Source of the DNA: Acidobacteriota bacterium
Lineage (GTDB): Bacteria; Acidobacteriota; Vicinamibacteria; Vicinamibacterales; 2-12-FULL-66-21
Assembly (NCBI GenBank): GCA_013813355.1
Contig: JACCRT010000054.1
Location: forward strand, 1 to 60,793
Direction: 5' to 3'
DNA: 60,793 bases
Positions within the stretch are counted from its first letter, which is position 1. Each line of letters opens with the position of its first letter. The notes under the pieces are model-generated. The model did not search any database, was not told where the DNA came from, and saw only the letters and a list, made by a program, of their open reading frames with translations. Shown piece after piece: positions 1-60,793 of the stretch. A program made the translations under genes and the position numbers.

Positions 1-88
1 ATGCATCCAAGGTAGGAGCCGTATGCAGCAATCCTGCACGTACGGATCTGTGCGGGGGGCGGCGGGTAACCGTCGTCCCTACCGCGAC
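1..88 (+). mobile_element. 3' end of a group II intron (end of intron-encoded ORF, domain V, domain VI)
   Basis: ATG CAT CCA AGG TAG (1-15) is followed by DV GAGCCGTATGCA-GCAA-TCCTGCACGTACGGATCT, with the AGC triad at 17-19 and an AC bulge. Then come GTGCGGGGGG and DVI GGCGGGTAACCGTCGTCCCTACCGCGAC, ending in the canonical AC at 87-88. The rest of the intron lies outside the window. Confidence 0.93.
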
Positions 89-235
89 GAAAGTCTGGCG
101 TCGCACCGAGACGGGCGAGGCGCCCCGCGGGCAAGGCGCGACGACCGAGAATACTGCGCGTATTTGAGGGAGGAGCAACGCAGCCCGCGGGGATGCATCG
201 CCCGTCGAATGCAGCCAAACTTTCACCACGGGCTG
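89..235. mobile_element. MITE-like palindromic element, copy 1 (first 11 nt of the left TIR displaced by the intron)
   Basis: Begins GAAAGTCTGGC and ends GCCAAACTTTCACCACGGGCTG. Internal nested inverted repeats: ACGGGCGA/TCGCCCGT, CCCCGCGGG/CCCGCGGGG and AATAC/GTATT. 109-235 is the reverse complement of 60667-60793 with 1 mismatch. Confidence 0.85.
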
Positions 236-334
236 TTGAGCTTCCCGGCGGCCTGGCGCACGGAGGCGCCGGCGAGTGACCCGGAATTGCACGCAATTGC
301 GCGGACTCTGCTGTATTGCGCTGTTCTGTTCACC

Positions 335-453: not shown

Positions 454-1266
454 ATGATCAATTACACCGAGCGCATCACGCTGCTGATGCAGGATGTGGT
501 GGCGCGCACGCCCCGCCTGTCCTTCATCGACCTGCGTGAGATTCTGGTTTTCGGCCGTTTCGGCCGTTCGGACGCCGAGGGAGCATTCGCCACCTGCCAC
601 TGTCTGACGCTGCCAGAGAGCGAGCCCGGCTACTTTTTCTGGCGCGATCGTACGACCGGTGAGCTGACGCGTCGTTCGCAGTGGTTCGTCACGAAGTCGC
701 CCGAGGTCCGGATCCTTCAGACGAAGATCAAGTACCTCGTGTCGTTTGCGCTGCCGCGCTTCTGCAACCAGAGCCTCGAGCGGTCACGCAAGGCCGAGCT
801 GTATCCGGAGAGGACCGAGCCGTGGGTCGCCAAGCTCGACACGATCGTGCACGAGCTGTATCACATCGACCCGGATGAGACAGGCCTCCGGCGGGTGACG
901 CGCGCCGATGGATCGCACTCACCACGATCGCACGGACCGCTCTACTATGAGACGGTCGCCGAGATGGTGCAGGCCTACCTCGCGTCGAATCCAGACCCGT
1001 CGCTGCTCGCGTTCCTGCGCGATGACTTCGACACGCTCGGCACGCGGCACCGCGAAATCACCTGCACGACCTTCCGGAACTTTCCGTCCTTCCCGCAGCG
1101 GTACCAGGAAGCGGTCGACATGCCGGCCGATCCGATCGTGAAAATCGAACCACTGAAGGCGCCCACGCAGCCCGTGCTGTATACGGAAGCAGACCTCGTC
1201 GTCCGTCACTTCACCGAGACAGGCGTGCGGCGGCTCCCGGCGCCTGGTCACCACCGGGCGGCCTGA
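454..1266 (+). CDS. Putative zinc metallopeptidase (HExxH) of unknown function
   Basis: 270-aa ORF with typical codon usage. LDTIVHELYHID motif and a downstream SHG third-ligand candidate. Confidence 0.6.
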   Translation: MINYTERITLLMQDVVARTPRLSFIDLREILVFGRFGRSDAEGAFATCHCLTLPESEPGYFFWRDRTTGELTRRSQWFVTKSPEVRILQTKIKYLVSFALPRFCNQSLERSRKAELYPERTEPWVAKLDTIVHELYHIDPDETGLRRVTRADGSHSPRSHGPLYYETVAEMVQAYLASNPDPSLLAFLRDDFDTLGTRHREITCTTFRNFPSFPQRYQEAVDMPADPIVKIEPLKAPTQPVLYTEADLVVRHFTETGVRRLPAPGHHRAA

Positions 1267-60666: not shown

Positions 60667-60793
60667 CAGCCCGTGGTGAAAGTCTGGCTGCATTCGACGG
60701 GCGATGCATCCCCGCGGGCTGCGTTGCTCCTCCCTCAAATACGCGCAGTATTCTCGGTCGTCGCGCCTTGCCCGCGGGGCGCCTCGCCCGTCT
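60667..60793. mobile_element. MITE-like palindromic element, copy 3 (cut by the window end)
   Basis: Starts CTAT|CAGCCCGTGGTGAAAGTCTGGC. 126/127 identical to the reverse complement of 109-235. Confidence 0.88.

Follow-up and report, generated by a model that had tools for sequence, protein, structure and literature searches.

The closest described system is RmInt2 of Sinorhizobium meliloti GR4, a class D group II intron whose seven copies all lie in the inverted repeats of ISRm17 and whose homing into these repeats has been shown experimentally (PMC4615759; PMC5894124). Its authors argue that such repeats double the number of targets and place one of them on the lagging strand (PMC4615759; PMC5894124). 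The strategy of homing into terminal inverted repeats (TIRs), including the argument of two targets per element, is thus already known from RmInt2 in the ISRm17 repeats (PMC4615759). RmInt1 in ISRm2011-2 and introns described as "hiding" in mobile elements likewise take another mobile element as their target; the RmInt1 target lies inside an IS630-family element and is not placed in a terminal repeat in the sections of PMC5894124 and PMC7306698 that deal with it, and the term "inverted repeat" is absent from the main text of PMC7306698 and PMC8919778. Full-text searches, which covered few subscription papers, returned no report of class E introns with such targets, or of MITE or IS5/IS1182 ends serving as such targets.

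The DNA analyzed here, a window of 60,793 nucleotides, is the entire contig C7 of an Acidobacteriota assembly (G000; 1.2 Mb, 57% complete). A class E-like group II intron ends within it: positions 1-88 (+ strand) are its 3' end and run directly into the TIR of a short repeat. The intron lies between TIR nucleotides 11 and 12 and probably arrived by site-specific retrohoming, with the repeat as its natural target, a reading to which we assign a probability of roughly 0.88. As judged from its sequence context, the intron appears to behave like RmInt2: it occupies a fixed base inside the inverted repeat of an insertion sequence, is guided by EBS1 and EBS3, and can use both repeats. Both systems lack an endonuclease, use inverted repeats as homing sites, find two targets per element on opposite strands and occur in several copies per genome (PMC4615759). 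RmInt2, in contrast, belongs to class D (32.5% RT identity to L040, the complete relative introduced below), has a defined EBS2 and was described from one strain (PMC4615759), whereas the window intron is class E-like, targets a MITE, pairs through no visible EBS2 and belongs to a lineage that keeps one register throughout; RmInt2 homing was demonstrated experimentally, whereas that of the window intron is predicted from sequence. What is new is class E, MITE ends and a fixed, lineage-wide register.

The intron end carries the hallmarks of group II introns, namely domains V and VI, the AGC triad, a branch A and an AY 3' end, and window 14-88 matches RF00029 (domains V/VI) with 40.5 bits against a gathering score of 40 (E 1.6e-4). 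Specifically, on the + strand, domain V spans 16-48 with the AGC triad at 17-19 (Rfam alignment and sequence), and domain VI spans approximately 52-88, where the bulged branch A is predicted to be position 81 and the last two bases, 87-88, are AC. The reading frame of the intron-encoded RT/maturase closes at positions 1-15 with MHPR and a stop, a C-terminus shared with the RT/maturases of relatives. The intron 3' terminus, ...CCCTACCGCGAC, ends at 88 and is directly adjoined by GAAAGTCTGGC (89-99, +), the inner half (nt 12-22) of the interrupted TIR, which is identical to 60678-60688 in the intact TIR at 60667-60688; G89 is IBS3, whose EBS3 partner was located by covariation. The initial annotation had read this junction, an intron end abutting TIR nucleotides 12-22, in the same way, and both the Rfam match and the identity to 60678-60688 bear it out. 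The remainder of the intron, about 1910 nt in full length, lies beyond the contig start. Rfam, Pfam and protein searches of G000, an assembly that is 57% complete, recovered neither this part nor the RT, and the intron body and RT are known from run contigs and relatives only.

The 3' exon at window 89-235 (+) corresponds to nt 12-158 of a non-coding repeat of 158 nt with 22-nt TIRs, is 97-98% identical to the three best intact copies and folds into a long hairpin (z -5.7 as RNA). Its second, uninterrupted TIR lies at 214-235 on the - strand, with an empty homing site between 225 and 224; this far TIR had been called intact, which holds except for one substitution at position 218. A probable 4-bp target duplication, TTGA, follows at 236-239 (+), assigned by analogy to the duplications at other copies in G000, with its partner outside the window. 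A second MITE copy (60667-60793, +) is cut by the contig end, and its TIR at 60667-60688 (+) offers an empty homing site between 60677 and 60678. In total, G000 holds 13 full or partial (contig-end) copies with 21 TIR instances. Where both flanks are available, four of six copies show an exact 4-bp duplication (TTAA, CTAT or TCAG), one shows a single mismatch and one does not match. One copy, on contig C9, splits the frame of an IS1182-like transposase and is flanked on either side by TTAA, which shows that the MITE transposes; some copies lie inside other mobile elements. Similar repeats occur in 29 of the 41 genomes searched, G000 included, although a few of the matches are to the intron part, and three viral contigs carry the TIR. 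The family affiliation comes from genome G039, in which elements of about 1.5 kb (L202, L204, L206) combine the same TIR with a 461-aa transposase related to IS1182 and IS5 and below both family cut-offs; the repeat is thus best described as an IS5/IS1182-type MITE. It shares with that family and its MITEs short TIRs starting with CAG, a YTAR-like 4-bp duplication and full-length kin that carry the same TIR and a related transposase. It departs from the family in that the G039 transposase scores below both cut-offs and in that no autonomous partner with the MITE's TIR was found in the 57%-complete G000; an IS1182 element on contig C5 was considered as this partner and rejected, as its ends differ.

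Several further observations concern the surroundings of the repeat. The MITE also inserts into a second repeat family of about 150 nt with ends CTAG-TCCCCTGG (G000 C30:32300-32559, C8:1-140 and C13:1-245), whose core is about 77% like the MITE's own, resulting in a nesting order of intron, MITE, and second repeat or IS1182 remnant. A collapsed mini-copy consisting of TIR tips only, 30 nt long with a TCAG duplication, lies at C42:7655-7684, and a shorter TIR-tip remnant is found at window ~2463-2486, beside an end of the second repeat. Just downstream of the interrupted MITE, window 454-1266 (+) holds a 270-aa ORF that matches nothing in Pfam or NCBIfam and has an HELYH motif resembling a zinc-metallopeptidase motif.

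The missing 5' side of the junction is supplied by sequencing runs. Four public runs (X1-X4) contain DNA of the window, of which X1 is the likely source run and so not independent. In X1, a contig of 1951 nt matches window 1-118 with zero differences and consists of 11 nt of exon, 1910 nt of intron and 30 nt of exon. Aligned to the complete relative L040, it starts at L040:123, the first TIR base, 11 nt before the intron, whereby the identity of each of the 11 exon bases is inferred from the alignment start. The X3 contig also begins to match at L040:123, and the X2 contig runs through that point. The 3' junction is spanned without differences to window 118 in X1 and X3 and to window 99 in X2 and X4. 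The depth of the intron contig exceeds that of unique DNA in every run, at 72.9 versus 27.6 in X1 (~2.6x single-copy), 48 versus ~19 in X2, 10.4 versus 3-4.5 in X3 and 34.8 versus ~12 in X4, with contig depth not to be equated with true copy number. Assembly-graph behavior points the same way: a contig that starts exactly at the TIR tip suggests different outer flanks and hence several occupied MITE copies. The X1 and X3 intron contigs run into one MITE end, those of X2 and X4 into the other TIR, in line with the earlier proposal that each repeat copy offers two targets, and all contigs of this intron in the four runs continue into the TIR. In X2, the DNA upstream of the TIR tip equals that beside the C9 MITE, a copy that carries no intron in G000. 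A locus empty in G000 and filled in X2 points to homing into resident copies; given a one-base difference between the X2 3' exon and the C9 copy, this contig may join two copies on its 3' side.

Independent cases were obtained from a metagenome scan that used the 3' junction alone as query. It returned nine distinct loci. In four of them (L040, L042, L046 and L047, the last with no more than the final 11 nt of intron), an intron-type end meets the MITE at the same base; the other five are unrelated chance matches. Only L040 among these loci reaches the intron 5' end. Its 5' exon reads TTAA-CAGCCCGTGGT, its MITE is complete, and its intron, which lies in the other MITE end, starts with GTGCG and encodes a 526-aa RT. 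A third, decayed intron in genome G032 sits in the same TIR at the same base, with the 11-mer seen directly. Its RT is interrupted by stops and its ends are damaged, and a partner end of the MITE was not found there. The L040 and G032 RTs are 81% identical to each other, and the X1 contig aligns to L040 domain I. The prediction that the 5' exon would be the TIR tip is thereby upheld by the contig starts in X1 and X3 and by the 11-mers of L040 and G032. A search of 201 genomes with the 16-nt 5' junction, one mismatch allowed, gave matches at the level of the reversed control. There were two exact 5'-junction matches, L190 and one in G411, of which L190 proved on inspection not to be an intron, and two long-flank matches (G039, G036) showed no intron end under the pattern used.

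A phylogeny of the RT had been proposed to assign the class. The L040 RT is 57.5% identical to the disrupted RT of pRmeGR4b, an element of class E (PMC5894124), and 31-33% identical to class D and C references. It groups with the pRmeGR4b RT at 99 SH-aLRT in a quick tree, a class E call that has this one anchor in a tree from which classes F and g1-g6 are absent. Class D membership, as for RmInt2, was rejected at 32.5% RT identity, as was the hairpin-targeting class IIC, given 31% identity to the reference taken as class C and an EBS1 of 6 bp instead of 3-4 nt. Above cut-off, the L040 protein contains only the Pfam domain RVT_1 and no HNH/endonuclease domain, and its ORF ends at domain V; one relative passes TIGR04416. 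The resemblance to class E (IIE) introns therefore comprises the 57.5% identity to the pRmeGR4b element (disrupted S.me.I4), the lack of an endonuclease domain, a 6-bp EBS1 and an IIB-type EBS3 (PMC3753933). Characterized IIE introns, in contrast, keep an apparent EBS2-IBS2 duplex (PMC3753933), a trait that the TIR-type introns do not display. In the class E intron Cl.be.I2, EBS2 is dispensable for self-splicing in vitro, and a role in mobility is expected (PMC3753933).

Covariation analysis offers a molecular framework for target recognition. A set of 59 introns, made non-redundant at 95% identity, left 40. In these, the strongest covariation of every exon position from -1 to -6 is with intron nt 184-189, EBS1, in antiparallel orientation (mutual information 0.89-1.64; 85-100% paired), and exon +1 covaries with intron nt 250, EBS3 (mutual information 1.38; 97% paired). 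The analysis excluded L055, L072, L107 and loci whose 5' ends are broken or atypical, and one row, L132, derives from an unpublished genome (G236), with no claim resting on it alone. In a consensus fold of 16 introns, in which 38 of 87 domain I pairs covary, EBS1 occupies the loop of a domain I hairpin and EBS3 an internal loop. For the window's intron, both guides follow from differences to L040 (321 T>C, 383 C>T) that all four runs share. Its EBS1, GCCACG, pairs 6/6 with CGTGGT through five Watson-Crick pairs and one G·T, and its EBS3 is a U facing G89 in a U·G wobble; the L040 EBS3 is C, and the G032 EBS1, ACCACG, matches the same TIR perfectly. No EBS2 pairing is seen in TIR-type introns, whose best duplex scores 2.5 versus 3.0 for shuffled exons; other relatives score 3.9 versus 3.6, with a few clear duplexes of 5-8 bp by eye. 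Of the pairings anticipated by the initial annotation, that of EBS1 thus stands in full and that of EBS3 to G89 as a wobble, whereas EBS2 complementarity fails. Its central proposal, that the TIR serves as the homing site, finds support in the junctions, the EBS1 pairing and the occupation of both TIRs. The motif CGTGGYR, which combines the EBS1 and EBS3 matches, occurs at 1550 sites in G000, 21 of them in TIRs; with CAG (-11 to -9) and AA (+2/+3) added, CAGnnCGTGGYRAA occurs at 22 sites, again 21 in TIRs. The flank motif is itself taken from the TIRs, and the counts thus demonstrate its sufficiency and not its use.

The register extends well beyond these introns. Among the best 80 of 478 RT loci, which were those examined, 21 have a clean junction of YTAR plus 11 nt and intron; adding L040 and G032 gives 23 sites, from 18 sources, that have an intron at 11|12 of an IS5/IS1182-like end. 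A partner repeat or IS5-like transposase follows downstream in 14 of the 21 sites checked, some partner repeats carrying 3-4 mismatches, and neither was found at the other seven, four of which are on short contigs. Host elements range from 120-206 nt (MITE-like) to 1.3-1.9 kb. The target is not peculiar to the MITE of the window: the lineage takes IS5/IS1182-like TIRs generally, full elements included. EBS1 tracks each TIR variant, as in the EBS1/TIR pairs TCAGCA/TGCTGA, TCCGCA/TGCGGA, TCATCA/TGATGA, TCAACA/TGTTGA and GACACG/TGTGTC, with one mismatch in three of the 23 sites (L049, L075, L077). TIR sites were labeled by a TA...G pattern, and conservation at -14, -13 and -9 is therefore partly circular. 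In a quick tree of 52 RTs (80 rows less 28 near-identical ones, with the L090 row, a wrong RT, ignored and six loci yielding no RT under the pattern used), the 18 TIR-type rows all fall in one clade of 33 rows (support 99), which also holds 11 introns with other targets; the tree requires 2-3 changes of target type. The named hosts are mostly Acidobacteriota, plus Binatota, Thermodesulfobacteriota and a proteobacterium, and the 11|12 register is kept across the lineage in at least four phyla.

A large number of close relatives have different targets, including other introns and IS110 ends. Sister introns in the same clade lie 63-90 nt downstream of the stop codons of IS110-family transposases (intron starts at L085:2221, L087:2233 and L065-L069:2233, as well as in L052, L058 and L092), with NF033542 above cut-off in L085, L065 and L066 and below it in L087. 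Their insertions fall at two fixed positions, some 21 nt from each other, within the conserved non-coding 3' end of IS110, which is probably the bridge/seek RNA; a literature search returned no paper on this combination. Twintrons are formed by L057, L076, L078, L082 and L090, each of which interrupts domain V of another group II intron, always at the same base; their EBS1 is CCACCG, accompanied by an apparent long EBS2 duplex. L104 carries one intron in two head-to-tail copies, as described for RmInt2, and L100 and L102-L104 represent five copies in one Bryobacterales genome at a short tandem repeat (..ACGCCGA|T..) near gene ends. Additionally, a subgroup (L109, L112, L113, L115-L117, L119 and L122, with L097, L099, L107, L108, L118 and L120) has an apparent GAAAGCG start instead of GUGYG, judged from the EBS1 pairing position, and one of its genomes contains many copies after GGGGAC(A/G)GT(C/T)C repeats.

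How the intron finds the TIR could also be explained by structure. In that case, specificity would come from a single-stranded MITE hairpin in which TIR pairs with TIR, as for class IIC introns at terminators and attC sites, and not from a protein that reads bases; the missing EBS2 pairing would fit, and in a DNA fold of the intact MITE (-55 to -57 kcal/mol) the two TIRs do share a single stem of 22 bp or more. This explanation is nonetheless unlikely, since the 11|12 register is equally kept in elements of 1.27-1.5 kb with distant TIRs (L049, L051, L060, L070, L086), the RT is class E-like and not class C, and IBS1 would be buried in the stem. Alternatively, a single intron might have entered one MITE, after which the composite spread by DNA transposition. 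In favor of such spread, several intron copies have the 11-nt tip in common and diverge immediately beyond it, but both TIR ends are occupied in different runs, the C9 MITE is without an intron in G000 and with one in X2, and relatives sit at the same register in different elements, which renders a single entry improbable.

Site-specific retrohoming has further to be weighed against a one-off ectopic insertion into an abundant repeat by an intron with its natural target elsewhere. The imperfect U·G at EBS3 and G·T at the EBS1 end would suit such an event, as would the TGA|A ends targeted by the nearest relatives. Yet EBS1 departs from the relatives' TCAGCA in the very way needed for CGTGGT, L040 and G032 with the same EBS1 type lie in the same TIR at the same base, and every contig of the window's intron in the four runs enters the TIR, making an accident of this kind highly improbable. 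The chance that the assembly simply joined two repeats at a contig end is negligible: the junction does lie 88 nt from the start of a contig in an incomplete assembly, but contigs cross it without differences as far as window 118 in X1 and X3 and window 99 in X2 and X4, and L040 is an independent complete case.

In the retrohoming model favored here, the intron would splice and then reverse splice into the TIR on single-stranded DNA at forks, where nascent strands may serve as primers, as for RmInt1 and RmInt2 (PMC4615759). Inverted repeats would offer one target per strand. Seven RNA-paired bases cannot alone give the specificity, and the protein thus likely reads the conserved CAG (-11 to -9) and the run of A from +2 to +4, as it does distal exon positions in the RmInt system (PMC4615759). 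The inner part of TIRs of this kind binds transposase. A split TIR end would probably no longer be used by the transposase. A broader and decidedly more tentative reading, to which we give rather less than even odds, is that the class E branch is a generic hunter of IS5/IS1182 ends, in which the protein reads a CAG...AAA frame that fixes the 11|12 register, the 7-base guide without EBS2 is retuned to each end, and a sister branch has been retargeted to the IS110 3' end with its probable bridge RNA.

These findings carry TIR homing beyond a single class D intron of one rhizobial strain, to non-autonomous MITEs and to an independent lineage of class E-like introns found in Acidobacteriota and further phyla. 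Its naturally occurring EBS1/TIR pairs keep a fixed register in the absence of EBS2 and so provide a ready test of the respective shares of RNA and protein in target choice. The TIR-homing lineage also makes it possible to test whether introns restrain the spread of IS and MITE families. Should the branch indeed be a generic hunter of such ends, it would constitute a natural, family-wide brake on one transposon family as well as a minimal-guide targeting system.
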